Positions 14,392 to 63,888 of a DNA stretch of 64,000 nucleotides are shown piece by piece (position 1 is the first letter of the stretch; the number at the start of each line of letters is the position of its first letter). The stretch is from contig MU053594.1 in assembly GCA_013239625.1 (NCBI GenBank), positions 1,864,127 through 1,928,126 of the forward strand, read 5' to 3'. The translations under genes were made by a program, and so were the position numbers. The stretch is from Lama guanicoe (taxonomy: Eukaryota). The notes beneath the pieces are model-generated. The model was not told the origin of the DNA. It saw only the letters and a program-made list of their open reading frames with translations, and ran no database searches.

Positions 14392-14520
14392 CTTTTTTTT
14401 CAGGGGAGAGGTAATTAGGTTTGTTTGTTTGTTTGTTTTTTAATGGAGCTACTGGGGATTGAACTCAGGACATCATGCATACTAAGCAGGCATTCTACCA
14501 CTGAGCTATACCCTCTCCTC
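14392..14520 (-). mobile_element. Camelid tRNA-derived SINE (Vic-1-like)
   Basis: Reverse complement of gggtatagctcagtggtaga...gttcaatccccagta... plus the ctaattacctc tail. Confidence 0.85.
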
Positions 14521-15433: not shown

Positions 15434-15589
15434 ACACTGAAAAATGCAAACCAAACTGATGGATATCTCTGTTCACGTAATGAAAGTATCGTGAAAAAAA
15501 GAAAAAAAAAAAACACTGAAAAATGAAAACCAAACTGTGGATATCTCTGTTCACGTAATGAAAGTATCGTGAAAAAAAGAAAAAAAAAA
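15434..15589. repeat. Tandem duplication, two copies of a ~79-bp unit ending in an A-tract
   Basis: acactgaaaaatg(c/a)aaaccaaactg...gtatcgtgaaaaaaagaaaaaaaaa starting at 15434 and 15513. Confidence 0.95.
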
Positions 15590-22640: not shown

Positions 22641-22838
22641 ACACATCTCTTAAGTGTGAAAATTAAAGTTGAGCAAGGTTACCAGTGCATTAAAATGCTG
22701 GAAAGAATATCATGTAACCTCAGCAAATTAGACATTGGTCCATCAAACTAAGATGGAATTTTATGAGAAAAAGAAACAGGAGGAAGAAGGCAAAGACACA
22801 TAAAATATGTGTATATGTAAGACAAAGAACAATTAGAG

Positions 22839-22930
22839 CAGGGAGGGCATAGCTCCCTGGGTTCAATCCTCAGTATCTCTAAATAAATAACTAAACAAAT
22901 AAATCTAATTAACTCCCCTAAAAAAGAACA
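22839..22930 (+). mobile_element. Internally deleted Vic-1-like SINE
   Basis: gggagggcatagctc joined directly to cctgggttcaatcctcagta, then an A-rich tail. Confidence 0.75.
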
Positions 22931-25044: not shown

Positions 25045-25565
25045 GCGCTGTCCGGTATGGGAGCCACTAGCCACGTGTGGTTACTGAACACTTAAAAGGG
25101 AGCTATAGTCTGAACTGAAATGTGCTGTAAGTGCAGAACTTACTGAGCACACACACAAGCAGAATGAAAGCAGGGAGGGCATAGCTCAAGTGGTAGAGTG
25201 TGTGCTTAGCATACACAAGGTCCTGGGTTCAATCCCCAGTACCTCCTCTATAAATAAATAAATAAATAAACCTAAGTACTATCCCCACAAAAATTTTAAA
25301 AAAAAATTTTTAAAGAGTATAATGTTAAAAAAAAACCCGAATGAAAAACCTCATTAGACTTAGTACAAAAACCAAAATGCAAATGATCTCATTAATAGTT
25401 TTTTAAATTGATTGCTTGTTGAGCAAATAACATTTTGGAAATATTGGGTGAAGTAAAATATATTATTAAAATTAATTTCATCCATTTCTTTTTTTTTAAA
25501 TGGGGCTATTAGAAACATTCATGCTACATATGACTCACGTCGTATTTCTACGGCACAGCACTGCG
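25045..25565. mobile_element. MER33-like hAT-Charlie element interrupted by a SINE
   Basis: gctgtcc...agccactagccacgtgtgg...aaatatattattaaaattaatttca...cagcactg. Confidence 0.75.
25172..25336 (+). mobile_element. Full-length Vic-1-like SINE
   Basis: A box tagctcaagtggtagag, B box ggttcaatcccc, (AAAT)n tail; possible TSD gaatgaaa. Confidence 0.9.
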
Positions 25566-26539: not shown

Positions 26540-26682
26540 CTTTTTTTTGAGGGGGAGGTAATTAGGTTTATTATTTTTAAATTAATTTTTTATTTTATTT
26601 TTTTAGTGGCGGTACTGGGGATTGAACCCAGGACCTGGTGTATGCTAAGCACGCATTCTGCTGCTGAGCTCTACCCTTCCCC
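26540..26682 (-). mobile_element. Vic-1-like SINE
   Basis: gggggaggtaattagg...gtactggggattgaacccaggacc...tgagctctaccct. Confidence 0.88.
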
Positions 26683-27073
26683 TACACTATTACTATTTGA
26701 AATAATTGTCACGAAACCCTAAGAACTTGAAAAACATATCTTCATTTTTGATTACTTAAGTGCAACATTCTAAAATTAATATCCCAATTTTGTAATTTCT
26801 TTTCTATTAGTTTCCTTCACTCAAGCAAATCTTTATTTAATTAAAATGAACAGAGAATGCCTATCTCCACCCAGGTTTACAAAGCACTTAGAGTTTGAGA
26901 ATCACTCCATCCCAAAGGGTGACTTTCTTTTTGGAAAATCACTATGAGGTCTCGGGCCTAATCCTACTCCAGTCCCCTCAGAACCCTCCGCTACACACCG
27001 GATGGATCTCCTGATGGGGGCAATCGCCAGTTAGCGATATGTGTCTCATCCAAGGACATGAGGAAGCACTGAC

Positions 27074-27934: not shown

Positions 27935-28200
27935 TTCTTTCTTTTTTATTGAAGCAGTTGATTTACACTGTTGATTCAGTTATTTATATACATGTTTATA
28001 TATATATTCTTTTTCATTATAGTTTATTACAGGATATTGAATATAGTTCCCTGCGCTATACAGTAGGACCTTGCTGTTTATTTTATATATAAACATTTGC
28101 TTAGGACCTTGTATCTGCTAATCCCAAACTCCTAGTTTATCCCTCCCCTACTCCCTTTCCCCTTTGATAACCCTAAGTTTGTTTTCTGTGTCCAGGAGTT
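27935..28200 (-). mobile_element. Cetartiodactyl L1 3' end fragment
   Basis: gaatatagttccctgcgctatacagtaggacc...ctgctaatcccaaactcc. Confidence 0.85.
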
Positions 28201-28357
28201 CCATGATCTGATTTATGTTTTTTAAAGTTGACCCTGTGTGGACACAGATTATGTGAAGAGGAAACAGGGGGATTATTTAGAAAGAAAATGAAAATAGTCA
28301 CCAAAAGATAATGATGGTTTGGGAAGAGGCTGAGAGGTATATACATGTTTTTAATTG

Positions 28358-28476
28358 GGCGGGGAGCTGTTATTAGGTTTTTTTTTTAAATTTTTTAATA
28401 CAGGTACTGAGGATTGAACCTGCCACCTTGTGCATGCTAAGCACGCACTCTATCACTGAGCAACACCCTCCTCCCG
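28358..28476 (-). mobile_element. Vic-1-like SINE
   Basis: ggtactgaggattgaacc...gtgcatgctaagcacgcactcta...tgagcaacaccctc. Confidence 0.85.
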
Positions 28477-30014
28477 AGAGGTACATCTTTAATATAAAGC
28501 AGACAGCACATGCGAAGGACTGGATCCGATATATAAGGAAAAGAGAATCATTCAAGACAATCTCTAACTGTTCTGCTTTAACAGTTGGGGAACTGGTACT
28601 GTGATGTGTTACTCAGATGAAGAATACCGGAGGATACAGGCATCAGTGGGGAGCAGGAGAAGTTCTGATTAGGACATGTGAAGTCAGAGTTGCATTTTAG
28701 ACATCGAAGTAGAGATGCTGAACAGGAAGTTGATATTCGTGTCTAGAACTCAAGGAAAAGCTTAGAGCTAAAGATACAAATTTGGGAAGAGATCATTTAG
28801 GGGATAGAGAATACACAAGGACTGAGGATTGACACTCTAAGAAGAACGTCAACATTTAGAAGCCAGAAAGCAGAAGACAGCCAGCAAAGCAAAGAGGGGA
28901 GGCCAGCGAGCAAGGAGGAAAACTCAAAGTCCACAGGGTTTTGGAGGCCAAGGGAAGAAAGTGTTTGGAGGAGGAGGGAGTGACCCACTGTGTCAAGCTC
29001 CGCTAAGTTGTATAAAATGAGAACTGAGGACTGGCCACCGGATTTGACAAGGCAGAGGCTGTGACCTTGAGGAGAGCAGTTTCAGTGGGGTAGTGGGATC
29101 AAAAGCCCAAAAGGCTGAAGAAAGAATGGGAAACAGAGCAGTGAGTTCAGCGAGTGTTTCTATATAGCCAAGTCACAACAGAATGCAGCATGCAAGAACC
29201 TGGGTTTGGGGAAAACAAGAATACATATTCATACTGCTTGTATATGCACAGAATATCTCTGGGAAGAAAAGCAAGAAATTGCTAACACTGGCTGTCTCCA
29301 GAAAGAGCAGGTTGCTGGCAGGGGGACATGGGTGGAAAAAAGGCTTTTGACTTTCTATCCTCCTGTGCTCTCTGGATTTTCTAACTGATTGTATTTGCAG
29401 TATAACCTATTCAAATGAGTGAAAAATTAAATGTGTAAAATGAGCTTTAGAATTAAAGCAGATGTAGGTTTGTATCTCTGCTTAGCCACTTAAGAGTTAT
29501 GTGACCTTGTCAAGTTGCTTAATCTAAATTCCATAAAATGAGTAAAATAGTAGTGCTTGTATCAGATCCACATCATAAATCAATCAAAGTAACATGCCCA
29601 GCACAGTGCTTGAGATATATGTGTTCGATGAATTTACTTATTTTTATAAATTCTTTTTCAGTTTGTTTCCTGAAAATGGGAATAATATGTTTCTCAAAGG
29701 TTGCTGATTAACTGAAATTAAATGAGATAGGGTGTTTAATAAATGGCAGCTGCTATTACTATGAACGTGGTTATTATCATTGTACGTAAACACTCTGATG
29801 AATTCTGAGCGGTCCGAACGAGGTGTTCATGGGCTGGCTGCCTGTGGCAAGCCTGGCTTCTCATATAACCCCTCCCAAACCCTACACCCCTCAAAGACTC
29901 TAAGCAAAGTAAGCAGACTTAGATGACAACGAATGTTTGAGTACCTATTACGTGTCCGGCACTTGGTTAAGGGTTGCGGAAACAGAAAAAAAAAATTATA
30001 CTGTACCTGCTCTT

Positions 30015-30101
30015 TTTTTTCTATTTTTTAATTTTTAATTGAAAAAAAAAATTTTTTTCAACGGAGGTACTGGGGATTGAACCCAGGACCTCATGCATGC
30101 T
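30015..30101 (-). mobile_element. 5'-truncated Vic-1-like SINE with a 14-bp TSD
   Basis: TSD CTGTACCTGCTCTT at 30001-30014 and 30102-30115. Confidence 0.9.
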
Positions 30102-30754
30102 CTGTACCTGCTCTTAAAGGGCTCAATCTATACAGGGGAGATAGGTAAGCAATTACCATTTGATGAGAGAAATCTGTGCAGGGCTACGGGCAAATGCCAT
30201 GGAAATATGATTATGGCGCAATCTAATAAGAACGACCGGCAGCAACTCCGGGGCTTCAAGGGGACAAACCCTCTCGTGGAGCATCATGGTAGTGAATATC
30301 GTACAGGGCTCCTTTTGCTGGTCACACACCTTCTTTTTGCCTGGCCACCACTTCCTTTCCCAGCCTCCGTTTAGACATCAGTTCTTCTGGCAAGCCATCC
30401 CTGAACCCCTAAGACTGGGCTGGGCCCCCCCACCCCGTGCTCCCATCTGTACTTGTCCCATCAGAGTACTGAGGACATTAATGGAAGTGACTTCACTTTC
30501 CAGGCTTTCCAACTGGATTGGGAGACTTTTGAGAGCACACACCGTGCCCGTATCATCATATTCCCAAAGCTTAATACAGCACCCTCCACTCAGTGTTTAT
30601 TGACCGAAATTAACCTTGGGCGAGTATTTTAAGTCTCCTCTACTTCCATTCCCATATGTATTAAAGGAGAAGACATCTGCTCTGAAGGGCACATGGAGGA
30701 TGAAAGAGGCCACGTGCTGGTTTATGCTAGTAACAGAATCCAGGGCCAACTGAC

Positions 30755-30884
30755 CAACAATCTCGATGAGATACGCCAGGATCACCCCATCCCGGAGGTC
30801 CTGTCTCAGGTCCTGCACAGGCTTCACCGCTGGCCTCTTCTTCAGCTGTGCATTCACCCAGGCCACGTATGCCTGCAGCTGTTG
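30755..30884 (-). CDS. DIXDC1: DIXDC1 exon 2 (QQLQAYVAWVNAQLKKRPAVKPVQDLRQDLRDGVILAYLIEIV), calponin-homology domain
   Basis: 130 nt, acceptor TTCCAG, donor G|GTCAGT, CH motif DLRDGVIL. Confidence 0.97.
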
Positions 30885-33800
30885 CTGGAAAATGAAAGGT
30901 GGAAATTAGGAAAAGGTTACATATTATTCTTACCCTCTGCCCTGCACCCTCTAAGGCAGCATGTGAGATTGGGCCATGGTGGGCGATCTACATCCAGAGG
31001 GAGAAGGAGAAAGTTTTAAGGAAAGAAAGAAAGATGGTCAGACATGCAACATGTTCTCAAATTCTCTAGTTTCACACCAGCCTCCAGGTATGAGCTAACC
31101 TCTAACCTGGGTGGCAGGGTAGACACAGAGACACAGATGAGTGTTTCAGTGATTGTGACTCCTGCTTTGCTTGCATTTTGCTCTGTTGACCAGGATAAGG
31201 GCTGGACCAGAACTGCAGCCAGTTTTCAAATGTAATCACTGCTGCCAGCAACCCACGGTGCTTCCCAGGAACAATCACTCATGTCCTGTATGCATAATGG
31301 ACTGTGATACTGCTAAGAACTGATGTTGGGGAATCAGGAATCCACAGTAAACCATGCTCAGAACCGCCTCTCCCATAGCTGCTTTCTTCATAATGAGACT
31401 TAGCTGAAATCAACCCCAGATTTATTCTCCTGAGCCTATAATCCTGAGATTGCTACAGAATTCGTTTTAATCCACCCTTTACAGTGTCAAAGAGGATCTT
31501 GTTATCTGAAACCTGCACAAGGAAGGGAAAAGAAACGGCTGTGATGAACAGTGTTCCTGAAGACTTGGGGAGAGTGGCTTTCATTTATTTTCAGACAAAG
31601 CTAGGACCCAGTACCATCAGAAGCCTTTCAGACCCAGACACGACATGTAACTCATTCAAACCCTTAGACAACCTTATAGACTCCATTTTACACAGAGCTT
31701 TTATATTCAGGTGTTTTTGTCTGATTATTTGGTCTGAAGATGGGCACTAAATATCAAAATAGCACATGAACAAGGTCACAGTACAGGCAGCAGCTCTGTC
31801 TGGTTTCTGTAGAAGCCCACGACCCAGAACCTAAAAATTAAGTTCAAGGGCTAACGCTATTAAATCATAATTTGGTTAATGTACAGTTGACTTCTAAGCT
31901 TCAAGTACTTCCTTAATGAAATGATACTGGAAATTACTCACTGGCTGCTTCCTGAGCTTAAATTAAATCTTCCCTATTTTCTCTCTCTCTGTCAATCTGT
32001 GGGAATAAATAAAGTCCTTTGGAAACCAGTGCTCAGGCAATAATCCATGAGCTACTGACAAACTGCAGGAAGTGCGATGATCAGCAGGAGGTGGGGGGAG
32101 GAATCTGATGTTTATGGAGTCCTACCACAAACTGAACACTAATTTTGGTGTTTTATAATGTGTTTTAAAGAGTTAATAATGTACCTGGGACACAGCTTGC
32201 CCCTCGATTGATGCTTACTAAATGGTCATTATCTTTTTTATGATCATCGTCTAATTCAGTTCTCACAAAAGCACGAAAGCGAGGTCGCTATCTTATCCAT
32301 TCTATGGATGAGGTTCAGAGAAATTATGTAACTTCTCCAATGTCCCCAAGCTAGGATAGCAGACCTGGTCATGCAGCCCAGAAAAAGTGGTCCAGGCATT
32401 TACCCAGGGCCTCTTGCTATTCAAGTCACCCTGCAGAACAGAGGTAGCTGCACCTTCCGCCTTTACATGGGTCAGACTCCCATCGAGGTCTGCTCCCCCG
32501 GTACAGCCACGACACTGTGTGAGGCAGACCAGGCAAAGGGCACCTCTATAGCAAATCACTCTGCTCCGGGAAAAGCAGTGAAGACCAGAAAGGCATTAAG
32601 GGTAACATGTGGGATCTGATTACTTGGTTTAGGTACAAAACTCCTAACCCATCTCCCTGTATCTCACCCTCCACCCACCCTCCACGCATTCCTGCTTAAA
32701 TTCCTTCACTGCGCTGTCATTATCCTCAAGCAAAATCCAATCTCCTTAGCTGCATCTAAGTCTGTCTTGTGCCAGCCTTTACCTCTTCTCCAGCTTCACT
32801 CATTCCTCCCCACATTCACCACACCATTTTTCAGTTCATCCAAACCATGTGCAGTGCCCCAAACACACCACGTTTTCCAGCCACTCTGCCTCCCTCTGCC
32901 TGCCATCTCCTCTTCAAGCTCATCTCAAGCACCACCTTTTCTAGGAAGCGTTCCCCGACTCTCCCACACACCTCCAACTCTGGTCTCCTCGGGGATGTCC
33001 TGTGTCACACAGTCAGCTCAACAGTAAGTTAAGTGCAGGCACTGGACTGTTGTGGGGCCACGAGGAGCCTCATGCCTTCAAGAATCTTTCAAGAAAAATA
33101 GAGAAGAGAGGAAGAGGAGGAGGAGCTTGCAGGCTGGTAGAGACAGGCGCTACAACAGGGGTGTTCCAGGGGCTGAGTCTTTGCCCAACCTGAAACCCAC
33201 ACTCAGCAGAGTCCTCTGAAGTTAGGAAAGGAGGCAAAGAGGACAGTGGACTTAGGGAGCTAAGGTCTGAACTGCGTTCTATGCAGGGAGTTGTAAGAGT
33301 TCAGAATTGTTGGACTCAGAATAACAGGTGCTCGACAAATACGTTTGAATCAGTACATCATTTGTCACATTTCATCAGGCCAAGACTTAAAATGACTGGA
33401 AAAATTAAATACGCAGGGGCAGATAAGAACAAGTATTTTTCATTAGGCCAACATAATTTTGCTAAAGTAACCGCAACCTTCCTTTGGTCATTAACCTTAA
33501 CTTTGGTGAATAGAAGTTAAGTTGTCTCTGCTGCAAAACTGCTTTGAGGTTCCAAACAGTACTTTACACGCACATTAATCACAGCTCTGGTCTTCCAACA
33601 AAAGAGGATGCTACGGCATAAATGGTAAGAGTACTCACCGCTTTTCTGAACACCTGCTCTGTGTCAAGAGCTATGCTAGGTCCTTTAAATGCATTCTCTC
33701 TAATGGTAATCCGCCAGGGAGATTTTACTGTATCTATTCCACTAACTGGAAACTGAGACTCAAACAGGTGAAATAAATTGTTCAAGGTCACCTAGGTAGT

Positions 33801-34135: not shown

Positions 34136-37100
34136 ATCTTGTATTTTCTCTGCCCTAGCTCTGTAATCAGCTATTTGACAAGTGAATAGAATTCCGGCTA
34201 CTTTAATTGGAGAATGGTTTTTAGAAACCAAAATTTGGGCATAAGGTGTACTCATTCTACGAGGGTAACATTCTAGGCCCCCTGGGCACAGGAGTAGGAA
34301 ATATGTGCGTGTGTACACACATCCACACATATCTGTATCTACTTACCTTGACAGACAGACATAACATGAATTATACTGACCCCTCCTCCAACCCAATTCC
34401 ATAGGGTTCACCTCTCCTTCCTCTTTGCCTTATTTGTAACTCCTTTCTCCCATAGTGAGGAACACGACTCTCTGTCCACATTATATTTACTAATATTTCC
34501 TCAGTCCTAGAAAATACATCAGATATCTCAGACTTGTTAGTCTATACCTTGTGAAAAACACATTTACTAACCAGAATATAATATTTGTATACAGTTCCTT
34601 TTGTCTTTAGCCTTACAGTGTACACTCAAAATACTGATTCCAAAGTGACTCAGGTCAGTTCTTTCCTTTCCACCTGCTCCAGTGTGGTTATTAATCTGTA
34701 ATACAGTGAGGTACAATTCTCATAATTTGTAGTCCATTTTGGGTTCTCCTCATATTTTAGTTGATTTTAATTATTTATTTTGAGGGTAAGTGAAAGATTA
34801 ACATGATTCTAAAAGTCAGGGCTATACAAAAACATATATTCAGGAAAGTGTCACTCCTTCATCATTCTGTCCAGCCCATTCCTATCCACCCAATTGGCAG
34901 GTAACCAATCTCATTAGCTCCATGTTATCTGGGGAAAAAAGATACATGTACATTTTATTTTCCTTTCCTTCTCAGTGTGAAAAATAGCATAGTATTGATT
35001 ATTCTTTTTGGACCTGCACTTTTCACTTCATCTAATGATCACTTAATACATTCTGTAAATCACGCTATATTGGTCAAGAAATCTTCCTTATCTTACATCT
35101 GCATAGCGCTCCATCATGTGGACGTACTATAGTTTATTCAACCATTCTTCTATACACGGGCATTTAGGGTTTTTTCCCAATATTTTGCAATTACAAACAA
35201 TGCAGCAATGAGTAACCTTATGCATGAGTATTTTCATGTTGGTGGAGATCTATCTTCAGGGTAGATTCAAAGATTGCTAGGTAAAAAGGTACGTAAGTGG
35301 GTAACTTTATTAGACATTGCCAAATTCCCTGCCAAAAGGATTGCATCTGTTTGCATTCCCAACAGCAATGCACACGAGTGCATTTTCCCACAGCCTTGCC
35401 AACAGAACATGTTGTCATGCTTTTAAATTTCTGCCAAAGTGATAGGTGAGAAATTGTATCCTAGGCTGTTTTAATCTTCATCTCTTTAATTATGAGTTTG
35501 AACCTCTCTTTGTAGGTTTAAGAATTCATTTTGTATCTTTGTCTTTTATATCTTTTTCATGAATTGTCTAGTCATATCTTTTCCCTATTTTTTAATCAAA
35601 GGACCTATTTTTTTGATCCTTTAGTGCCTCCATTTTTAAGAATTCTTTATATATTAAGAATGTTACCCTTTTGTCTTTCAGATGTGTTGCAGAGATTTCC
35701 CAGTTTGTCAGTCATTTTTTGTCTTGGTTTATGTTTTTTTTGGCCATGAGAAGGTTTTTATTTTTATCTAATGAAATTTATTGATATTTTATTTTACTGC
35801 CTCTGAATTTTGAGTCACGGTTAGAAAGCCTTTCCGTAAACTGAAGTGAAAGGATTCACCTCTGCTTTTTTCTAGTTCTCATATGATTTCAAATTTGTTT
35901 CCCTTTAGATCCCTGATCCACGTGGAATTTATTCTTGTATGTGATGGGAGATATAGATCCAATTTATCTGTCTTCAAATGTCTACCCAGTTGTTCCAGCA
36001 CATTTACTAAAAAGTCACTCTTTACTCCAGGGATTTGAGATGCCACCTTTTTTTCATAGACTAAATTTCCATAGTTCTTGGGTCTACTTCTAGACTTTGC
36101 ATTCTGCATCACTTGTGTATTTGTTTCTGCATGCACCAGGACCAAAATGTTTTATTTGCAGAGGCCTTATAGTATATTTTAATATCTGGTGTGGCTAGTC
36201 CCTCTCCCCTGAAGTTTTTCTTTTTTGTAATGTTTTCTTGAATATTCTTGAATATTTATCACTCCATATGAGCTTCAATATTTATTTACCTAACTTCCAC
36301 CAAAAAAGCCTGTTAGAATTTTTATTGTGATTATATTAAATTTAAAAATTGGCATGGCATGGGGAGAACTGTCATCTTTATGATGTTGAAACATCCTATT
36401 CAAGAATGGGTTGACCAAGTCCAGGAAGTGCAGAGAGTTCAACACAGGATCAATCTAAAGAGGAACACACCAAGGCACATAGTAATCAAAATGACAAAAA
36501 TTAAGTATAAGAAGAAAGTATTAAAATCAGCAAGAGAAAAGCAGCAAATAACATACAAGGAAATTCCCATAAGGTTATCAACTGATTTTTCAGCAGAAAC
36601 TCTACAGGCCAGAAGGGAGTGGCATGATATATTTCAAGTGATGAAAGGGGAAAACTTACAACCAAGAATACTCTATCCAGCAAGGCTCTCATTCAGATTT
36701 GATGGAGAAACCAAAAGCTCCACAGATAAACAAAAGCCAAAAGAATTTAGCACCATGAAACCAGCTTTACAACAAATGTTAAAGCAACATCTCTAGTCAT
36801 CAAACCACAAGAAGAGATACATGCACCCCAATGTTCACAGCAGCATTACTGACAATAGCCAAGACATGGAAGCAAACTAAATGTCCATCCACAGATGACT
36901 GCAAAAAGAAGTTGTGGTATACACACATACACACACACACACTGGAATACTACTCAGCCATAAAAAGAAATAAAATAATGCCATTTGCAGCAACATGGAA
37001 GGACTTGGAGTCATTATACTAAGTAAAGTAAGCCAGAAAGAGAAAGAAAAATATCATATGATATCACTTACATGTGGAATCTAAAAAGGGGGGGGCATAA

Positions 37101-38900
37101 ATGAACTTATTTACAAAATAGAGATAGACTCATAGACATAGAAAACAAACTTATAGTTATAGGAGGTGGGGAGGGGGTGGGGAGGGATAAATTAGGAGTT
37201 TGGGATTTGCAGATACTAACTACTATATATAAAATAGATAAACAACAAGGAACTACTGTATAGCACAGGGAACTGTATTCAATCTTGTAGTAACCTCTAA
37301 TGAGAAAGAATATGAAAACAAATGTGTATATATGTATAAGTAAATCACTCTGCTGTACACCAGAAACTAACACAACATTGTAAATTGACTATACTTCAAT
37401 TTAATTAATTATTTAAAAAGTTTTTTTAAATCTCTTCTTTCTCCTTCCACTTTTACATTTTCAAGAATTTATTTCTCACAGATGTTGATCATGCCTGTGA
37501 ACTGTCTTATCTTATCAACTCCATTTACTGTCTCTTTGCAAGCAAATTGTGTTTTTTGGTAACTGTTGAGAATTTTCGGTCAATTTATTAAATTCTATTA
37601 AAACCTCTAAAGAAAAAATAAAGAATGGGGGCTGGTTTTCCATTGCTGATGAAATGTGTGTTTCAGGGATGTTTTAAAGTTTTCCTCCTGTAGCTTTTAT
37701 ACATTTCATGTTAAGTTCATTTCTAAGTATTCAATACTTCCTTACTGTGATTGTAAATGAGGTTTTCTCTACCATTACTTTCTCTAATTGATTACTCTCT
37801 GTTTTTGTGAAAGCTGTTCGTTTCAGTAGGTTAATTATATATCCTGTTACCTTATCTTTTATTGTTTGAGTTTTATTAATGATTCTCAATTATTTCCAAT
37901 GATATCATATAATCTACAAAAAGAAATCGTTTTACTTCTTTACTAAGCCCTGTGCCTCTAATCAGTTTCCAAATACCTCTGGTGCAAAGTTGGACAGTAG
38001 TGGAGACAGTAGACATCCTTTCCTTGTTCTGGACTTGGAGAAAATACCTGTAGTGTTCCCCAATTTAGAAAGTGACTGCTTTCAGGAAGAAGGTATATAT
38101 ATTTTATCACGTTAAGAAAGACTCCATCAAGTCTTTTTTAGTGATTTTATAAGGAACAGATGTTAAATGTTGATGAAAGTTTTCTCAGCATTTATGAAGA
38201 TAACTCTATGATTATTTTTCCTGAGACCTATTAATATGGTATATGCGGATCTCCTAATAATGAATCTACCTTGCATTCTTGGAGTTAAGTCTACTCGATC
38301 ACAATGAATTATATTTTTAATGTGATGCTGAATTCTGTTCACTAATAAAACATTTCTCAGTGCTGTATTAGTACTATATTTGTTGTCCTTTTCAGGGGCA
38401 TTTATAAATAATATTAGTCTGTAGTTTTCTTTTTTGCACTATCATGTTTAGATATATTATACTTGCTTTATTTTTTTAAAAAAGCAGAAAATTTCTCCTC
38501 ATTCTCAATCCCCTGACATAATCTACAGAGCACTGGGAATATCTGATAAGCGGAGGTTTGGCAGAATTCCTCTGTGAAATAATCTGGGCCTGGAACTTTT
38601 TCTGAGCAATAGTTCCTTCTTGAGGTTCTCCATTTCTTCTACAGAAACTTCTCTGTTTTACATATTCTGTATCTATCAATTTTAGTAATCAGCATTTCCC
38701 TAGGAAATTATCCATTTCATCAAAATTTTTAAGTGTCTTTGCACAAACCTGCAAAGACTCATAGTTTTTCGTGTTTCAGTAGTTACTTCTCCACTGTCAT
38801 TTCTCATTTTGTACATCGGTGCTTTCTCCTTTTTCCTTCTTCATCGTGTTAGCTAGTAGCTTGTCTATTTCCATAATTTTTTCCAAAACTCTTCAAAACA
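34136..38900 (-). mobile_element. Old L1 (L1MC/MD-type), antisense, interrupted by a younger L1 derivative at 36411-37620
   Basis: Continuous antisense 3' UTR and ORF2-like sequence; ORFs 35218..35418 and 35879..36145 read as degenerate ORF2 pieces. Confidence 0.8.
36411..37620 (+). mobile_element. 5'-truncated ORF2-deleted L1 derivative: ORF1 C-terminus + ORF2 tail/3' UTR + ~180-bp extra 3' segment
   Basis: ORF1p motifs (RNTPRHIVIK, PIRLSTDFSAETLQARREW, ILYPARLSF) stop at 36796 and are followed directly by ORF2-end sequence; TSD AAGAATGGG at 36402-36410 and 37621-37629. Confidence 0.88.
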
Positions 38901-41898: not shown

Positions 41899-42413
41899 TG
41901 AGTTGGGAAGCCCCATGAAAAATACGGCAGGACCCCCAGGCAGGGCCACTACCCTCCTGCCAGCACCATTCGGTTCCCTGGACCTGTGGCATTATCTCAC
42001 TTTTTAAACTCTGAAACAGCTTACTTCTAGGAAAGTGGAACTTATCCCTAAGATTCTGTTGGTTCCCTGAGCTAATGCCTGATTGGTCCATTTCCCTCAC
42101 TCCTGATTGGTCAATTTCTCTCACTCCTGATTGGTCCATTTCTACAAAGCTTGTTCCTAATTAGTCACCTTTGTTATGCCTTATTTGCATATGATGTTAC
42201 AAAATGTTGCAAAGTCTAGACTGGTAGCCTATAAAAAGCCTGTGTAAACCTACAGACGGGGTCCACAGCTTGGAGTGTTAACTCCTCTGGACCTGCTGGC
42301 GTAATAAACCTGAGTTCTCCAACCCTCCGAATGCTGCTTGGTCTCTTGCCCAGATCCAGGTTGCTGTCACAACTGAGCTGTAACACTGAGCTGTAACACA
42401 CTTTGCCGCAACA
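41899..42413 (+). mobile_element. Solo ERV1-class LTR (ERV9/LTR12-like architecture), antisense to DIXDC1
   Basis: TG...CA ends, TSD GTGA at 41895-41898 and 42414-42417, three 24-bp ATTGG-containing repeats, TATAAAA at 42230, AATAAA at 42303. Confidence 0.9.
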
Positions 42414-43879: not shown

Positions 43880-46800
43880 TGCCCAGCTCACAACGATTCC
43901 CTTTTACAGAAACATGTCCCTCTGCACACACAGTGGAGGGCCCCAGGAACAGCGGGTATCCTATAACCCCCGCCACTGGCCACAGGTGACTGGTCTAGCT
44001 GAACTGATTGGTCAAATCCAGCCAATCCCTGGAATTTTCTGATCTGGCATTTAGGAACAGAATCAGGATTTCCCGTCAAGAGGGCAGAGTTGTACATCCA
44101 CATGTTCGCCTTTCCTCACAACTACAACAAAACCACAACTGACTGCTAAATAAACATTGAAAAATGAAGACTGGAACCTAGCAAAAAAGATCTTCTTCAA
44201 CTGGAAACATAAAGAGGGAACCACAGCAGGACCATAGGAAGGACACACTCATGATATAATTGGGTCCCATACCCCCCAGGTGGGCGATCCACAAGCTGAA
44301 GAACAATTAAGTCACAGAGGCCCTCCCACAGGAGTGAGAGCTCTGAGCCCCACGTTCTGGCACTGGGAGGAGAAGGAGACCCCAGGACATCTGGTTTTGA
44401 AGGTCAGCGGGGCTTAGCTCCAGGAGCCCCATGGGACTGGAGGAAACACAGACTTCGTTCTTTTGGGAAGCATACACAGAACCTTGCGTGCATCAGGTCC
44501 AAGGGCAGAGGCAGTGATTTCATAGGAACCGTGGCCAGACTGCCTGCTAGTTTTGGAAGGTCTCCTGAGGACATAGGGGATGGCTGCGGCTCACCCAAGG
44601 GACATAAAAGCTGGTAGCAGATATTCCAGGAGTGTTCATCTACATGAGCTTTCTTGGAAGCTGACATCTTGATAGGATCATTAGCGCCAAAACCTTGCCT
44701 CTCCCAATAGCCTGTAGGGAAGCCTCAAGCCAAACAACATACTGGGTGGGAACACAGCCCTGCCCATTAGCAGACTTCCTGAGCCACAAATGCCTCTAGA
44801 CACGGTCCTACCCACCAGAGGTCCAGGGCCAACCTTCACCCAGCAGTGGGCAAGCACTGACTCCTCCTGCCAGGAAACCTGCATAAGCCTCTAGTCCAGC
44901 CTCATCCACAAGGGAGCAGATACCAGAAACAAGAACACAACAATGCCAAAGCCTGTGGAAGGAATCCACAAACACAGGCAAGACTCTACACAGGGACCAG
45001 CTGCAACCTGGCCCTTAGGTGACAAGAGAGGAGTGTACTGCTGGGACACACAGAATGTCTCCCACAGAGGGCCACCTCTCCAAGATCGAGAAACATAACC
45101 AAGCTACCTGAAAATACAAATAGAAGGATAGACAATATGAGGCGGCAGAAGAATATTTCCCAGGCCAAGGCACAAGATAAAATCCCAGAAGAAGAAATAA
45201 GTGGTGAGGAGATAGGCAATCTACCTGAGAAAGAGTTTCAAGTAATAATGGTGAAGATGTTCAGAGACCGTGAGGAGCATAGAAGCACAAAGCGAAGTTT
45301 TTAGCAAAGAGCTGGAAAATATAAAGAATACCCAGAGTGTAAGAATAAAATCACTGAAATGACTAACACACTAGAAGGAACCAGGAAGAGACTAAACGAG
45401 GTAGAAGAATAGATGGGTGAGCTAGAAGACAGATTAGTGGAGATCACTACTGCAGAACAAAACGAAACAAGAAAGAAAAGAAAAAAGAATGAAAAGAAAT
45501 GAGGATAGTTTAAGAGAATTCTGGGACAACATGAAGCACACTAACATTCACAGTATAGGGGTCCTAGAAAGAGAAAAGAGAGAGAAAAGACTTGAGAAAA
45601 TTTTTGGAGAGATAATAACCAAAAACTTCCCCAACTTGGGAAAGGAAACAGTCACCCAAGTCCAGGAAGCACAGAGAGTTCCACACAGGATCAACCCAAA
45701 GGCATGCAGGAATCAAACTGACAAAAATTAAGGATAAGCAGAAAATATTAAAATTAGCAAGAGAAAAGCAACAAATAACAGCATACAAGGACTCCCATAA
45801 GGTTATCAGCTCGTTTTTCAGCAGGAACTCTACAGGCCAGAAGGGACTAGCATGATATATTTAAAGTGATGAAAGGGAAAAACTTACAACCAAGGATATT
45901 CTATGTAGCAAGGCTCTCGTTTAGATTTGATGGAGAAATCAAAAGCTTCGCAGATAAACAAAAGCAAAAAGATTTCAGCACCACTAAACCAGCTTTACAA
46001 CAAATGTGAAAGGAACTTCTCTAGTCATCACACCATAAGAAAAGAGAACAAAAAGAAGAAAGAGAGAGAGGAGAAGAAAAAAAAGACTTACAAAAGATTG
46101 CTTTGGCAGTTCAGTCTTTTATGGTTCCATATAAATTTTAGAATTGTTTGTTCTAATTCTGTGGAAAATGTCGTGAGTATTTTGACAGGGGTTGCACTGA
46201 ATCTGTAGACTGCTTTGGGTAGTACGGCCATTTTGATAATGTTGATTCTTCCCATCCAAGAGCACGAGGTATCTTTCCATTTCTTTGTATCATCTTCAAT
46301 TTCCTTCATCAGTGTTTTACAGTTTTCAGAGTATAGGTAACCTCCTTGGTTAAGTTTATTTCCAGGTATGTTGTTGTTCTTGATGCAATGGAAATGTTTA
46401 TGCCAATTATAAAATTCTGGTTTTTGAAGTAAAAAAAAAAGTGAATGAAGGGCCACAAATGGCAAAATATCCTTCTTTTTTGTGGGTGAGTTGTATTCCA
46501 TTACATATGTATGCTGCCTCTTCTTTATCCATTCATCTACTGATGTGCACTTGGGATGCTTCCATATCTTGGCAATTATTAAAAAATGTTGCTGTTAATA
46601 GCGGGGGTGTATGTAACTTTTTAAATTAATTCTTATTTTGTAGTTGGCTCTATTCCGTTGATAATTATGTAAGTTGAAAAAGCTACAGCTTTAAACGTTC
46701 TTAGAAACAATGAACAGTACATATATGTAAATTCTTAAAATATGCGCGGTATATTGTATATATGTATTTACATGCAATATATCGTGTATGTGCCGTCCAA

Positions 46801-47200
46801 TTGTAATAATTCCACCTAATAAAACTGAAAAATGAAAAAGAAAAAGGAATAGAACCAGTCTTCTGTCTCTGTCTTAGTCTCTCCCTGGCAAAGTTGTAAG
46901 ATATAAAAGTTAGACATTGTCATAAGCCATGTTGCCCACCTGAGAGAGAAAAGCCATTTGTATTGAGATGGAATAAAGCCACCTACAGAAACAACCAGAG
47001 ATAAGAGTCAGAGAGCAGAGGGAGAGATCCTACCAGCATTTGAGTTCTTGATTTTCACTGTTTTTGGGTCTCTGCCCCATCCTTGCTCTTTTCCGTGGTT
47101 TAGTTTTTCAGCCTTTCCTTGGATTCCATGAGTCAGTAAATTCCACTTTCTATCTCTGCTAGTTCAAGACGGGTTCTTGGCACTTACAACCAAACTAACA
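43880..47200 (+). mobile_element. MLT1-type (MaLR) LTR split into ~43880-44066 and ~46845-47200 by the L1 derivative
   Basis: MLT1-like motifs on both sides (ggtgactggtc...ccaatc; catgagtcagtaaattcc...gggttcttggcacttacaacc). Confidence 0.55.
44067..46844 (+). mobile_element. L1 derivative with 5' UTR and decayed ORF1 (45137-46024), no sense ORF2, and a composite 3' segment
   Basis: ORF1 begins MRRQKNISQAKAQDKIPEEE...LPEKEF; A-rich tract ~46040-46085; antisense L1 pieces ~46090-46625; AATAAA at 46818 plus A tail; TSD AGGAACAGAATCAG (44053-44066) / AGGAATAGAACCAG (46845-46858). Confidence 0.85.
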
Positions 47201-51061: not shown

Positions 51062-51240
51062 TTGGTTTTTTTTCATTGAAGTCTAGTCAGTTTACAATGT
51101 TGTGTCAATTTCTGGTGTACAGCATAAAGTTTCACTCACACAGATACATACATATATTCATCTTTATATTCTTTTTCAATATAGGTTACTATAAGAGATT
51201 GAATATAGTTCCCTGTGCTATACAGAATAAAGTTGTGTGT
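51062..51240 (-). mobile_element. Camelid-type L1 3' terminal fragment
   Basis: attgaagtctagtcagtttacaatgttgtgtcaatttctggtgtacagc...gaatatagttccctgtgctatacag. Confidence 0.85.
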
Positions 51241-53101
51241 CATTTTTATGAAGACTCTCCCACTCTCCTTTTCCCTTATTTTTTTTTATAAGAACTGGAT
51301 GTCAGGGGACATTTATGAAAGCAGCAAAGGGTGAAAAAGAATCAAGCCTCTTGGTTTACTTGGCTTTTAGCTAAAAGGTCTAGAGGTGAAATGAACAGAA
51401 GGCAAAGACTAGGAGTGACTCTGTGCTGGTTTCCTCCTCTTAATAAGACAGTGGAACCTGATACCTGGGGCCTGACTTAGAAAAAGGGGAGGCTATGAGA
51501 AGACCTAAGGAGAGTCTATCACAACTGATGGATGAGTCAGACGAATGATGCTTGAGATCAGGGGAGGCCCAAAGGCAGAGAGTGAGAAAACAGGGGCCAG
51601 GAATACTGGAAGCACCCAAAGAGGTGGCTTCCTGGCTCGTCTGTGTTTCAACTCTCAGACTGTGGCTCTTTGTTAACAATCCCCCTACATGTGTTCAAAG
51701 GGGAATGATGCACAGATGAGGAGCCCTGCTGTGCAGACGGGATGGGAGCTCGGTCCTTCGGTGAAGGCTGTGACCCCCATCCCTGCAGCCAAAGGAAGAC
51801 TCTGACTCCGTTGTTAGGCTGGGACAGCATTTGTGCGGTTTTCCTCTGTGTGTGTGGATCAAGGCTGGGGCGCAGGGGCCAGGACTGGGGAAGGTTCTGA
51901 GGCAGGTCAGGCTGCAGAGCTTCTTAATTAAAAACAGGAATGAAGGAAAGAGCCTGTCGTGCAGATGTAGAAAGAAAACCTCAGACACAAATTCATGAGA
52001 ATGGTTACCTCTAGGCAGAAGGCCAGGACTGCATGGGTGGTCAAGGCAATCAGCCTGTAATGTTCCTATTTAAGAAGAGAATGCAGTCATATGTTAACTG
52101 TTTAACTAAAAACGGGTTTAAAAAAAAAACCTTAAACTTTAGAGAGATGCAAAGGGAAGAGAGCTCCTGAGAGGTGGCAAGAAAAGGAGAGAGAGAGAAA
52201 GGAAGAAAGACACAAACTAAAATCTAGCTCTTCTTGTAGGGGTCCCCCTGGATGCTGGGTAAGGCACCCCAAGAGGTGGGCTTCAGGAGCAGTGGGAGAC
52301 ATATGGAGCAAATCGCAAGGGGGAAAGGTCCTAAACCAGAATTTCCTGAGTCACAAGAGAAGAAAATGGAATGAACAACAAAATTCTGAGAGAAAAAAAG
52401 TGAAGAGAAAAAGACCCCCAGCCAGCCCTAAGCCATACTGTCAGATGGAGGCCCCAGTGTCCGACTCACACTGAAAGAAGCAGACACTGGCTCCCCTGAA
52501 TTAGGCTCAGAAACCCCTCTCTCCTCTAAGGTCCTCTCTACCAATGATGCCCGTGGTTGTGGAGAAACGTACTACCCTGGATTTAGAAAGAGATGCGAAC
52601 AGGAGGAGGGCACTTCCAGTGGGCACCTACTGTTGCTGCACCCGCACCCCACCCCCAGCAAACTTTCTACCAATGCAATGCCACCCCACCCTTCCCTGGG
52701 CTCACCCACTTGGCTCCGGAAATAGAATGAGCACCTCTGCCATGTATTCAGGGCTTCCCTGGGGATTTCCTTTGGGGCAAACCTTGGGGAGGGTAGGGAC
52801 CACCTCTTTTGGAAGGAGATGACCTCTGAATGTATGGTCCTGTCTTCTGGGCTCAGGCAAGCTACCAGGGAAGGTCATCGCCCAGCTTAGCTGGAAGCAG
52901 TCGGCCCTTCTGATCCCTGCGGGTTCACCAGGGTCGTCTGTACCGTGCCCACCACCTTAGCCTCCTTAAGGCTCTGCGGGGGGACTGTTCTGGGGTCCCC
53001 ATGGTCCGCGTGAGGATGGGGGCGGAGGAGGACCCCTTCTAGAGATTAGGCAGGAGGCGCTAGGGGAGGAGAGCTGGGGAGTGGGAGGGGCAGACAGTTA
53101 C

Positions 53102-53161
53102 CTCATTGAAGCCCTCCTGCAGGACGTCCAGTAAGTTCCCCCGGGTCAGGCAGGCTAGCAT
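53102..53161 (-). CDS. DIXDC1: DIXDC1 coding exon 1 of the long, CH-domain isoform (MLACLTRGNLLDVLQEGFNE)
   Basis: ATG at 53161, 20 codons matching the recalled human/mouse N-terminus, donor GAG|GTAACT, phase 0. Confidence 0.97.
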
Positions 53162-55715: not shown

Positions 55716-57770
55716 ACAATTTCAAAATATTCTGTTCCATTGTCCCCACACAACTACCGAAATGTCCCAAAAATAATAATATGTTCACGTATAGTCTGCC
55801 TCTTACGCTTGGAAAAAGCACAAAATTCTTGTTGGACCAGATAATTCCATTTTTTTTTCTTTTTTGCTCAAAAAATATGTTCACCATACCTATCATGGTC
55901 TGACTTAGAAAGGGATCAAGGTAAAGAACTGAGCTTTAGTTCAAAGCAGCACTAACATTTACTGTGCCTTCCATCCTCCCTACTGTGGTACCCGCTACTG
56001 TGATGCCAGCACAGCAGCTGGGGGAGTAAGTGGGTTAGCTAAATGAAACAGGGACAGTGATCCGCTTTCCCAAACATGGGAAAGCTGCAAGCCGGTCTGG
56101 GTAGCTGGAACCAGTCCCACCGCTGCAGGTCTGTTATTCACTCCGCCTGGAGGAGAGGCAGAGAGTCCAAGCAAGCTGCTGTCTGCATATCTCTGCCATG
56201 CTGCCTGATTTCCGAAATTATAGGCTTCCTCATTTCTGCGTTACTTTAACAACAAAGGCAGATACTTCCCTCACCAACTAAAAGCTACCCAACTATCTAC
56301 GTACAACAGTAACAATAGCAAAATTGTGCTTTTACTATGTACCAAGCCCTGTACTAAGCATTTATATACCTGAGCTCATTTGATGGTCACAATTACCGTA
56401 ATCAGTAGGTTTTTAAAAAATTATCCCCACTTTACATATGTTGAAGGAGAATTTTGAAGGATAATTTGCCCCAACTCCATAGTTACTAAGTGGTGAAGCC
56501 GAAGTCCAGGTTATTAACCATTATGCAATTCTTTTATATGATGCTTATGGCAGAGAAGGAACTCAGTATATGTTTTTAGTTGAATGAATGAATGAGCCAG
56601 TGGCGGAAACATTGGCAAACTCATTCATCACTTCTATTAATACAGATGATAACATGTTAGCCTAAGTGAGACTTTGAACCTTCAACAAAACTGTCATTTG
56701 GTGAAAATATCGACTGTGACTTCTCCCTGCAGAGAAGTGTGAAATTCATACCTATGTAAAATTTGACACATCTGTTACTGGAATCATTAATGACTATCAA
56801 GAAGCAGAAAGGCAGTTGGAATAAACAAATAATTAAAATTGTCAATGGAAGTATTTTAAATGACTCTATGAAATAATTTCTTATTTTTTTTCTGGTTTTT
56901 GTTTTTTTTACGTTTGCAAGTTCCTTGGCAGGAACATATGTTTACAATTTCTATTGCATTTATCTTCAGAGTAGTCAACATAAATACATACACACAAAAG
57001 GGCTCGTGTCTACAGTCAGAGGTCCCCAAAGTATCCTGGCTCCTAAACTGCTCTCTTTGTCTCCAGGTTTTTCTGCCAGTCTGTACCCCTTCATCTTCCT
57101 TAGACAACACACTCATCTTGCTGCTCAAATGTCTTCAAATGCTCCCTTTTCCTAGCATGTCCGATATACATTCCTTGTGTCCAGCTTTCAGGGCTCCCGC
57201 CCTCACTGCCTATGCTCAGTTTGCAATTTCCTCACTGTCTCACAGACTTAAAGGCTCATTCTCACCTCCATACATTCATGACTGTCCCTCTGCCTAGAAT
57301 GTCCCATGCTTCCTCTACTCAAACCTTCACTATGCCTAGCTCAAGTTCTGACCACTCCTGATTTTGTTAAAATCAAGACAGAGCCGATCACAATCCCAGT
57401 CTGGAACACTCACCTCCCAGATAACCCATGGTGCATTCCTGCTCGTCTTTCAGGTCTCTGCTCAAATGTTTCTCTGTTTGGCCTCCTCTGCTACTCTGTT
57501 CAAAATGACAACACCGCCTCACCTCAGCACTTCCAATCCTCTTTGCCTGATTTATTTTTCTTTTTTGTCCTAACAGTCATCAGCATATTTACTTTTTAAT
57601 TTCTTTATTGTCAGTCTCTCTTCTGCCCAAAATGAAGCTCCAAGGGGGCAGGAAATTTTGCGTTTTGTTGCTGATTTATTTCCAGAACCAAGACTATTTC
57701 ATGGCACATAGTTGATACACAATAAATATTAGCTGGATGAATGAATCTTCTCTTTAAAATTCAAAAGTGA

Positions 57771-57905
57771 GGGGAAGGGTATAGCTCAGCGGTAGAGTGC
57801 GTATTTAGCATGCACCGCCACTAAAAAATAAAATAAAATAAAAAATTAATTTAAAAATACATAAGTAAACCTAATTCCCCCCCAAAAAACAAAAACAAAA
57901 ACAAA
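57771..57905 (+). mobile_element. Vic-1-like SINE lacking the B-box segment
   Basis: ggggaagggtatagctcagcggtagagtgcg...cttagcatgca-like head plus A-rich tail; TSD-like aaaattcaaa(a)gt on both sides. Confidence 0.8.
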
Positions 57906-61166: not shown

Positions 61167-61290
61167 CTCTTAAATCATCTGTGCGTCTGGTTCCGCATCT
61201 CGGTTCCCAGCCCTTCTGAGCATGGCCTGCTTCTGCTACAGTGTCGCCTCTGCGTTCCCGCTGCCATGGTGACGCGGGGGCCGGCCCTTG
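61167..61290 (-). other. DIXDC1: Putative non-coding first exon of the distal DIXDC1 transcript (5' end uncertain)
   Basis: Donor GAG|GTAGGT at 61167/61166, just downstream of a GC-box-rich CpG island; nearest strong donor upstream of the 59558 acceptor. Confidence 0.6.
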
Positions 61291-61660
61291 CCAGACCGGG
61301 CCCCGCCCCCTGCCGGCTCGGGCCCCGCCCCCTGCGCATCCAGACTCTCCTCCTAATGGCTAAGACCGCAACGCCTGCCGGCCTTCACCCCGCCTCTTGC
61401 CGGCCCTGACCCCGCCTCCTGATTGCCAAGACTCCGCCCCCTGCCTGTCCAGACCTGCCCCTTGCCGGCCCCGACCCCGCCTCCTGCCCGTCCGGACCCC
61501 ACCCAGGGAGCTCCGCCTGCTGCAGATGGGAGCCTGCCTCTCGCGGGGCCAAATCACACCCCGGCCTCTACTCTGGCCTTCGCCGGTAGTGGGGCGGAAA
61601 GTGGCTGGCCTTCCGCCCTGCCCTGAGGCCGCGTGAGATCCGATGCGCTTAGTAGAGCCC
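61190..61660 (-). promoter_or_regulatory. CpG island / distal DIXDC1 promoter with many Sp/KLF GC boxes and an RFX X-box-like near-palindrome
   Basis: High CpG density; repeated CCCCGCCCC/CCCCGCCTC motifs; GCTGCCATGGTGAC at 61260-61273. Confidence 0.75.
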
Positions 61661-62363: not shown

Positions 62364-62612
62364 TCACACTAGGGTCCCATTCTTGTTATCATAGCGGGGT
62401 GTGGCCTGGGGGAAGCAAAGGATCGCATACTCTGTGGCATTTTCCATTTGCAGGTGCTTCACCTCCTGGGCAGAGCGTGGCTGGGTACTGCTGCACACTT
62501 GAATGTCTGCGTAATGTAAGCTGCTGTCCTCAGACCTGAGACCTTGACTCCTCTCCCGAGACGCAGGCTGCTTTAACACTTGCTCATACGTATGTCCCGC
62601 TGTGGCATGGCC
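62364..62612 (-). CDS. C11orf52: C11orf52 orthologue last coding exon (GHATAGHTYEQVL...LHYADIQVC...ENATEYA...YDNKNGTLV*)
   Basis: Acceptor CTCTCAG, TGA at 62364-62366; characteristic LHYADIQV, ENATEYA and NGTLV C-terminus; synteny upstream of DIXDC1. Confidence 0.93.
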   Translation of the reverse strand, partial: GHATAGHTYEQVLKQPASRERSQGLRSEDSSLHYADIQVCSSTQPRSAQEVKHLQMENATEYAILCFPQATPRYDNKNGTLV

Positions 62613-62848
62613 CTGAGAGGAATGGACAACATTAAGGGAGATTCTTGGCTTGATTTTGCCCCTCACCTCCAATGCAGGGTCAATTACACTGATGTTTCTT
62701 TGCTTTGCTCCATTGAGGGAATAGAGGAAACTGGGTAGAACCAGCAAGGTTATAGATGACTGAGAAGTGTCTGTCCCAGGATGGAAAAGCTGAGTCCTAG
62801 GATCCCATGTCTGAGCATCCCCTAAAAGGGACTGAGGCCTGTCTTTAC

Positions 62849-62907
62849 CTTTGTGTAACTCTGTTGCTGTTGCTGCTGCTGCTTTGGTGTCCAACTTGTG
62901 TCGTTCC
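62849..62907 (-). CDS. C11orf52: C11orf52 orthologue penultimate exon ((G)NDTSWTPKQQQQQQQSYTK)
   Basis: 59 nt, acceptor TCCCAG, donor AAG|GTAAAG, phases 1-0 consistent with neighbours. Confidence 0.85.
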
Positions 62908-63888
62908 CTGGGAGGAAGAAATATGACTTAAATCCATTTTCTCTTCCTGCTCTCTTTGAAGACTGCCCTCTTCAAATCTCTATTAAAGTATCATGGTGGG
63001 CTTCTAACTAATCTCCCTGTGTCTCCTCTCATCTCTCACTCCTTTGCAGAGTATCCAACCTGGCCCTTGCACAATCTGCCCATAACATCTTCCATCCTAA
63101 GTTTTCACTGGCCCCTCACATAGTTCAACAAATGTATGTTGAGAGCCGACTGTATGCCGGGCTCTGTACCACATTCTGGGGACAGAAGGATAAGTAAGCT
63201 GTTTTCTTCGCTTCTGGGAGTTTATAGTCTGTTCAGGGAGTCACATAAGAGTATACACACTATTACAGGGCAACGTGGTTAGAGCTCAGCTACGCCAAAC
63301 ATTCGGTCACTTTCCGTCAAGTCACTCTCTTTCTTCCTTCCTTCCTTTCTTTTTTTCTTTCTTTCATATTTCTCTCTCTCTTTCTTTCTTTTTTTTTTTC
63401 TTTCTCCATGAGATAATTCCCCTGCCTAAAATATCCCCTCCTCTCTGCTCCTCTTCTAACGTGTGACCTTGCTTCACTGGTGTTTTCGGAAGCACTAGTA
63501 GACGGAATTACAATTACTTGCTTACATGTATCTCTCTCTCAAATTTGGTTTTCAGCTCTTTTAGGGCCGAGACCACGTGCCCTTCCTCTTGGGCCTCTCT
63601 GCCTCCTTGGGGCCCTGCAGAGTGCCTCACATACAGTATAAGTATTCAGTAAATTTTTGCTGGATGAATGAAAGAATGAGCAACAACCTTGCCACTCTGA
63701 GATGATGGAAAGGATGAGACTCTGAGTTTCAGAACTGGTCTTGAACCCAGCAACTTAAAGATTAATTTTGGTGATCTGTCTCCTTTTAGTCCTTGCCCGT
63801 TAGGCCCTTTCTAAAGACATTGGTTCTATTCTCTTCTCTAATTTGCACCCCCACTCCAGAATCCCCCCACCCTCCCAACTTCCGTTAC

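Follow-up and report, generated by a model that had tools for sequence, protein, structure and literature searches.

A 5′-truncated L1 insertion lacking most of ORF2 and carrying a probable 3′ transduction in a guanaco intron

The 64,000-nucleotide stretch of the Lama guanicoe genome analyzed here (referred to below as the window; contig MU053594.1 of assembly GCA_013239625.1, positions 1,864,127 to 1,928,126) carries at 36402-37629 an L1 copy in which the end of open reading frame 1 (ORF1) is followed almost directly by the end of ORF2, and the L1 3′ untranslated region (UTR) is followed by a short stretch of non-L1 sequence. The evidence supports a single event of L1 insertion, in which a genuine target site duplication (TSD) encloses both the L1 copy and the non-L1 tail. 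The tail is likely to be a 3′ transduction, and a single L1 insertion with a one-off loss of ~3.6 kb, by a template jump or a later deletion and with no family of such elements behind it, is slightly favored as the origin of the ORF1/ORF2 junction.

A single insertion event

A 9-bp TSD, AAGAATGGG, had been proposed to bracket the insert from the sequence alone, and this duplication proved to be genuine: both flanks belong to a single older L1 ORF2 on the minus strand, and removal of the insert restores that ORF2 without a gap. An empty site rebuilt from the two flanks and one copy of the 9-mer was aligned to a younger antisense ORF2 at 46085-46420 with a score of 91 (the maximum in 200 shuffles was 55), with one ungapped alignment block crossing the join; the left and right flanks alone scored 65 and 39, respectively. 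Residues 606 to 908 of the host ORF2 (human ORF2p numbering) require 906 bp, and the host spans 868 bp when the whole insert is taken out and 1067 bp when only the L1 part is removed and the tail is kept. The nick site, TCTT/GA, conforms to the L1 endonuclease consensus 5′-YYYY/RR-3′ and is among the sites given in Table 1 of PMC4859970. The empty-site alignment, the host spacing, and the TCTT/GA site together indicate that the duplication is real and that the tail arrived with the insert; the restoration test is an internal one, made against the host L1 in the window. Chance sharing of a 9-mer was seen in 20 of 5000 random pairs of 30-nt windows from the 35-39 kb region (draws less than 100 bp apart were skipped yet counted within the 5000), and only one further AAGAATGGG, at 29122, is found on the plus strand of the window. 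A short A-tail (10 A residues in 12 nt) adjoins the right copy of the TSD.

The ORF1 piece of the insert matches the Pfam families Transposase_22 and Tnp_22_dsRBD, is open over 126 codons, and ends with a TAG stop at 36794-36796. The match to ORF2 begins at 36816, 20 bp past this stop, at residue 1191 of the 1275 residues of human ORF2p. Accordingly, the proposed fusion of the ORF1 stop to the end of ORF2 within ~20 bp stands, with the correction that the last ~85 codons of ORF2, not the last ~60, have been retained. This remnant ends with a stop at 37082-37084 and contains a frameshift near 37010 and a CA expansion at 36921-36943; ~3.6 kb of internal L1 sequence is absent at the junction. The assignment of the L1 3′ UTR, with a decayed tract at ~37400-37430, agrees with two other L1 ends in the window that match the insert up to about 37400; the one at 27972 bears AATAAA where the insert reads AATTTA (Table 1).

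The non-L1 tail

The segment behind the decayed tract was correctly recognized as ~180 bp of AT-rich, non-L1 sequence: its 178 bp (31% GC) have no blastn match elsewhere in the window at an E value of ≤1 and are absent from both other L1 3′ ends compared there. This non-L1 sequence lies between two A-tracts inside the TSD, as expected of a 3′ transduction, and the ATTAAA hexamers noticed at 37587 and 37597 indeed precede the second A-tail, which is only 12 nt long. The first hexamer ends 16 nt before that tail, within the 10 to 30 nt expected of a polyadenylation signal, and the second ends 6 nt before it. Two A-tracts with a downstream signal constitute the layout of a 3′ transduction as described in PMC4859970, and all copies from one human L1 source that lacks a signal of its own were transductions with their end 234 bp downstream (10.1101/2024.08.27.596794). 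The tail is therefore best read, and with good likelihood, as a 3′ transduction. Nothing supports the additional suggestion that the tail is the end of a gene's 3′ UTR, as any downstream DNA with a cryptic hexamer would produce the same layout, and its description as mRNA-like has no basis other than the hexamer and the short A-tail.

Two other identities of the tail were considered and rejected. As part of the old host L1, it scored 34, compared to a mean of 28 and a maximum of 44 for shuffled sequences, and the host spacing also speaks against this assignment. As a structured or known RNA, it yielded a fold z score of 0.65, and the best Rfam match (E value, 4.2) fell outside the tail. Two of its six reading frames were tried against Pfam and gave no matches. 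At the start of the tail (37431-37481, plus strand), a pyrimidine-rich run followed by TTTCTCACAG resembles the end of an intron, a resemblance that may be due to chance.

All 18 words sampled from the tail are present in 15 of the 24 public sequencing runs listed, which are DNA runs with 4 organism labels from 6 studies, all of them flagged as possible sources of this DNA. Partial sets were found in runs X16 to X18 (0.56 to 0.61 of the words), X19 (0.39), and X20 (0.22), and the remaining 4 of the 24 had none; the partial sets are not taken as a sign of expression. The presence of the tail in 15 runs means that it is not an assembly error and is apparently shared among related species; it is not independent support for any mechanism. 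One of the runs, X1, comprises only 22 million letters and still contains all 18 words, which could reflect a multi-copy or transcribed sequence or simply luck.

Table 1. Features of the insert at 36402-37629 and of the older L1 around it
Feature	Positions	Strand	Basis
Left flank, ORF2 of the older host L1	35879-36410	−	ORF2p ~908-968 at 35.9-36.1 kb; weak alone, E 0.08-0.36
TSD, left copy, 9 bp, AAGAATGGG	36402-36410	+	Bottom strand at nick, TCTT/GA
Four bases at the 5′ truncation point that match no L1, either untemplated or diverged	36411-36414	+	Match to second element begins at 36415
Last ~40% of L1 ORF1, comprising the end of the RRM and the CTD; frame open, decay neutral	36415-36796	+	Pfam PF02994, PF17490
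First 21 bp of inter-ORF spacer; overlaps start of ORF2 match by at least 2 bp	36797-36817	+	18/21 identical to spacer of 44053-46858
Last ~85 ORF2 codons, frameshifted, with CA expansion	36816-37084	+	Human ORF2p 1191-1253, E 7.9e-17
L1 3′ UTR; polyadenylation signal mutated to AATTTA at 37398-37403	37085-37400	+	77% and 81% identity to L1 ends 27972-28199 and 51075-51225
Decayed first A/T tract (presumed end of source L1)	37401-37430	+	Sequence
Non-L1 tail, 178 bp, probable 3′ transduction, ATTAAA at 37587 and 37597	37431-37608	+	No match in window
Second A-tail, short (12 nt, of which 10 are A)	37609-37620	+	Sequence
TSD, right copy, AAGAATGGG	37621-37629	+	
Right flank, ORF2 of the older host L1	37630-38435	−	ORF2p 540-606 at 38.2-38.4 kb; E 3e-10

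A related ORF1-only element and the age of the insert

The element at 44053-46858 (plus strand) consists of an L1 5′ UTR, a whole decayed ORF1 (45137-46026), a ~65-bp spacer, two antisense scraps of ORF2 (46090-46410 and 46456-46621, one of them corresponding to ORF2p residues 780-858), and a tail of unrelated sequence that contains AATAAA and finishes A-rich. It measures 2.8 kb and is apparently full length. The candidate 14-bp TSD at its edges has 2 mismatches and is weak alone, because as many as 13 of 300 pairs of windows drawn at random reached the best score found there. Judging from its layout, this element is a better HAL1 (half-L1) candidate than the insert at 36402-37629.

In the final 228 nt of ORF1, 25 positions (11%) differ between the two elements, 4 of them synonymous (at 45.7 sites) and 21 nonsynonymous (at 182.3 sites), so that the proportion of nonsynonymous differences (pN) is 0.115 and that of synonymous differences (pS) is 0.088. 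With pN not below pS, no purifying selection is seen in this part of ORF1. In HAL1 elements, ORF1 was reportedly found by Bao and Jurka in 2010 to be kept under such selection. Any dead copy looks this way after insertion, and the ORF1 frame of the insert is still open.

Protein searches with the last 76 residues of ORF1 returned 3682 and 1337 matches (5019 in total), of which the best 120 from each search were examined; the best identity among these 240 proteins was 85%, and the three entries that name a species name the pig. Relative to the majority residue of the 240 relatives, 8 of the 76 residues are private to the insert, 9 are private to the second element, and 1 differs in both, and the two elements have 4 minority residues in common. 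By these comparisons, the insert and the 44053-46858 element are of one lineage and equally decayed, by about 5.5% each. At the average mammalian rate, such decay takes ~25 million years. The camel rate quoted in PMC8605555 gives ~11 million years, and the age of the insertion is put at roughly 11 to 25 million years.

Origin of the ORF1/ORF2 junction

In the slightly favored one-off scenario, a single L1 insertion by target-primed reverse transcription, 5′ truncated inside ORF1, was preceded by transcription of a source L1 with a weak or dead polyadenylation signal, which would have continued ~180 nt into the flanking DNA and ended at ATTAAA. Less firmly, the reverse transcriptase may have copied ~800 nt and then used short homology to jump to the A-rich spacer that follows ORF1, in the same RNA or in another RNA of the same lineage, before copying 400 nt more; RNA of the 44053-46858 element could have been the second template in such a switch. 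Alternatively, the copy may have been inserted with its full-length middle, which the genome would have lost in a later deletion. PMC11702581 describes L1 insertions in which the template was switched at microhomology without a change of orientation, and the template-switched or internally deleted insertions reported there resemble the present one in having two pieces of the same orientation, short homology, and a normal TSD and A-tail. They differ from it in that both pieces of the insert are L1 derived and old, which makes a later genomic deletion indistinguishable from a template switch.

No further copies of the ORF1/ORF2 junction were detected in the 64-kb window. At least 8 residues past the end of ORF1 were found in 33 of the 240 examined proteins; none of these has the spacer or junction of the insert, and its lineage is not recognizable in any of the 240. 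The junction motif had no matches in the JGI metagenomes, where the control spacer motif likewise had none, and the spacer motif had none in viral contigs; the lineage is not visibly present in these collections, and the zeros carry no evidence on the existence of a family.

Several observations weigh against a one-off loss or against the transduction combined with it. The break lies 21 bp past the ORF1 stop, as would also be the case in an ORF1-only family, and an ORF1-only element of the same lineage is located 8 kb away. The 126-codon frame stays open in just 5 to 17% of neutral-decay simulations (4000 per setting), a weak hint that ORF1 may have been useful for longer than the ORF2 remnant. 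Of 2013 AT-rich points chosen arbitrarily in the window, 128 (6%) have such a hexamer 10 to 30 nt upstream, so that its presence provides only modest support for a polyadenylated end, and the final A-tail is short. No donor locus lies behind a related L1 within the 64-kb window, and no orthologous empty site was seen.

The most serious alternative, tentative as it is, places the loss of ORF2 in the source: a HAL1-like, ORF1-only element with a dead polyadenylation signal would have been read through and copied in trans by the ORF2p of another L1, and the insert would be its 5′-truncated offspring. In its favor are the break right behind the ORF1 stop, the ORF1 frame that is open next to a frameshifted ORF2 remnant, and the apparently full-length ORF1-only element in the window, which matches the insert in lineage and age. 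HAL1 elements are described as having arisen several times in mammals (PMC5753468), and the occurrence of the whole tail in the small run X1 is what a multi-copy or transcribed sequence would give. Against it, the junction was seen only once in the 64-kb window and in none of the 240 ORF1 relatives listed, pN is not below pS, and the neighboring ORF1-only element has a different 3′ half. It is unlikely in the form in which the insert is one of a few offspring and still less likely in the form in which it belongs to a real family. Such an undescribed ORF1-only family of the camel family, whose master lost its polyadenylation signal and adopted ~180 bp of flank as a fixed 3′ end, beside a second ORF1-only family represented by 44053-46858, is correspondingly improbable.

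An improbable alternative to transduction is that reverse transcription started on the poly(A) of a cellular RNA unrelated to L1 and then moved onto an L1 RNA at its 3′ end, in which case the tail may be the genuine end of an mRNA, as was first suggested. Two-RNA insertions have been described (PMC11702581), and an ATTAAA 16 nt ahead of the A-tail would suit such an origin. However, the L1 3′ end is complete, is followed by an A/T tract of its own, and has a signal mutated as read-through predicts, and the RNA-labeled runs contain only 0.39 and 0.22 of the tail words, which intronic or contaminating DNA would explain.

Two successive insertions at one site, an L1 piece with TTCAAGAAT as its TSD (36399 and 37460) followed by a 150-bp orphan insert at 37469-37620 with the TSD AAGAAT, are highly improbable. 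The sharing of a 9-mer such as TTCAAGAAT between the left boundary (36399-36407) and the inside of the tail (37460-37468) is uncommon, at about 0.6 to 2.5%: one in common with the left boundary was found in 3 of 117 AT-rich segments of 190 nt and in 118 of 20000 shuffles. A two-step history would, however, leave the first insert with no A-tail beside its TSD, place the start of that TSD 3 bp before the endonuclease nick, and make the GGG in both copies of AAGAATGGG a coincidence.

Comparison with known L1 derivatives

In its 3′ half, the insert has the same parts as L1 partnered 3′ transductions (PMC4859970, PMC13756887, 10.1101/2024.08.27.596794), namely, an L1 3′ end, an A-tract, a short unique sequence, a downstream hexamer, and a second A-tail within one TSD. 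As in those cases, the signal of the source would be weak or absent. Unlike in those cases, the L1 part of the insert also lacks ~3.6 kb internally.

Mammalian HAL1 elements, as described in PMC5753468 and PMC13756887, resemble the insert in lacking endonuclease and reverse transcriptase and in that ORF1 passes almost directly into the L1 3′ end. The insert has the ORF1 sequence (only its 3′ part) and no functional ORF2, as HAL1 elements do. In contrast to them, it is a single observed copy that has no 5′ UTR, holds only the last ~40% of ORF1, and keeps ~85 codons of ORF2. Because the copy starts at 36415, inside ORF1, it possesses neither a 5′ UTR promoter nor a whole ORF1, which says nothing of its source. 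Neither a camelid HAL1 family nor a report on this locus was found in the literature, a search that did not extend to Repbase or Dfam, so a named family may exist; one alpaca fragment is labeled with a bat HAL1 name in PMC6726744.

SpIREs, which are retrotransposed spliced L1 RNAs (PMC5860796), are likewise internally deleted L1 copies with the hallmarks of target-primed reverse transcription. Splicing in those described there takes place at GT-AG borders, either within the 5′ UTR or from it into ORF1, whereas the comparable spacer of the related element (46027-46092) offers no GT donor. The deletion in the insert does not have GT...AG borders by this comparison, and a spliced origin of the junction, as in SpIREs, is not supported.

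Genomic setting and other features of the window

The insert is intronic: it lies between two exons (30597-30905, PF00307, and a first exon near 53060-53130) of a minus-strand gene with a CH domain and is antisense to this gene. Going by the peptides, the gene is probably DIXDC1, and a DUF4578 exon at 62364-62927 probably belongs to C11orf52. An ESM Atlas look-up for the name of the CH-domain gene returned only CH-domain leads, all below 0.9.

Several repeats elsewhere in the window deserve mention. A short interspersed repeat, presumably the camelid tRNA-derived SINE, is found in seven copies in both orientations (14394-14519, 22825-22902, 25157-25293, 26541-26683, 28352-28474, 30052-30114, and 57770-57867). 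At 15441-15589, a 71-nt unit is present in two head-to-tail copies, 87% alike and each ending in an A-run, resembling a duplicated end of a short retrocopy. The region 42079-42151 contains three 24-bp tandem units with the CCAAT-box-like CTGATTGGTC, which we assume to be similar to a long terminal repeat, and a GC-rich array of 22-bp tandem units occupies 61280-61504.

Implications

Camelid genomes carry roughly 350,000 to 400,000 L1 fragments (PMC8605555, Table 1), and the insert is most likely an ordinary, new instance of known L1 processes. It is antisense to its host gene and has no sign of function; without a promoter and holding only the last ~40% of ORF1, it is dead whatever its origin. 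Its value lies in the tail, a marker that can locate the source L1, which would show whether ORF2 was lost before or after copying and so would directly test the way in which half-L1 elements originate. The finding would be of greater importance only if the junction were multi-copy. If an ORF1-only family did exist, one L1 lineage would have given rise to half-L1 parasites on two occasions, and the tail would serve as a built-in tag by which the master locus could be traced.

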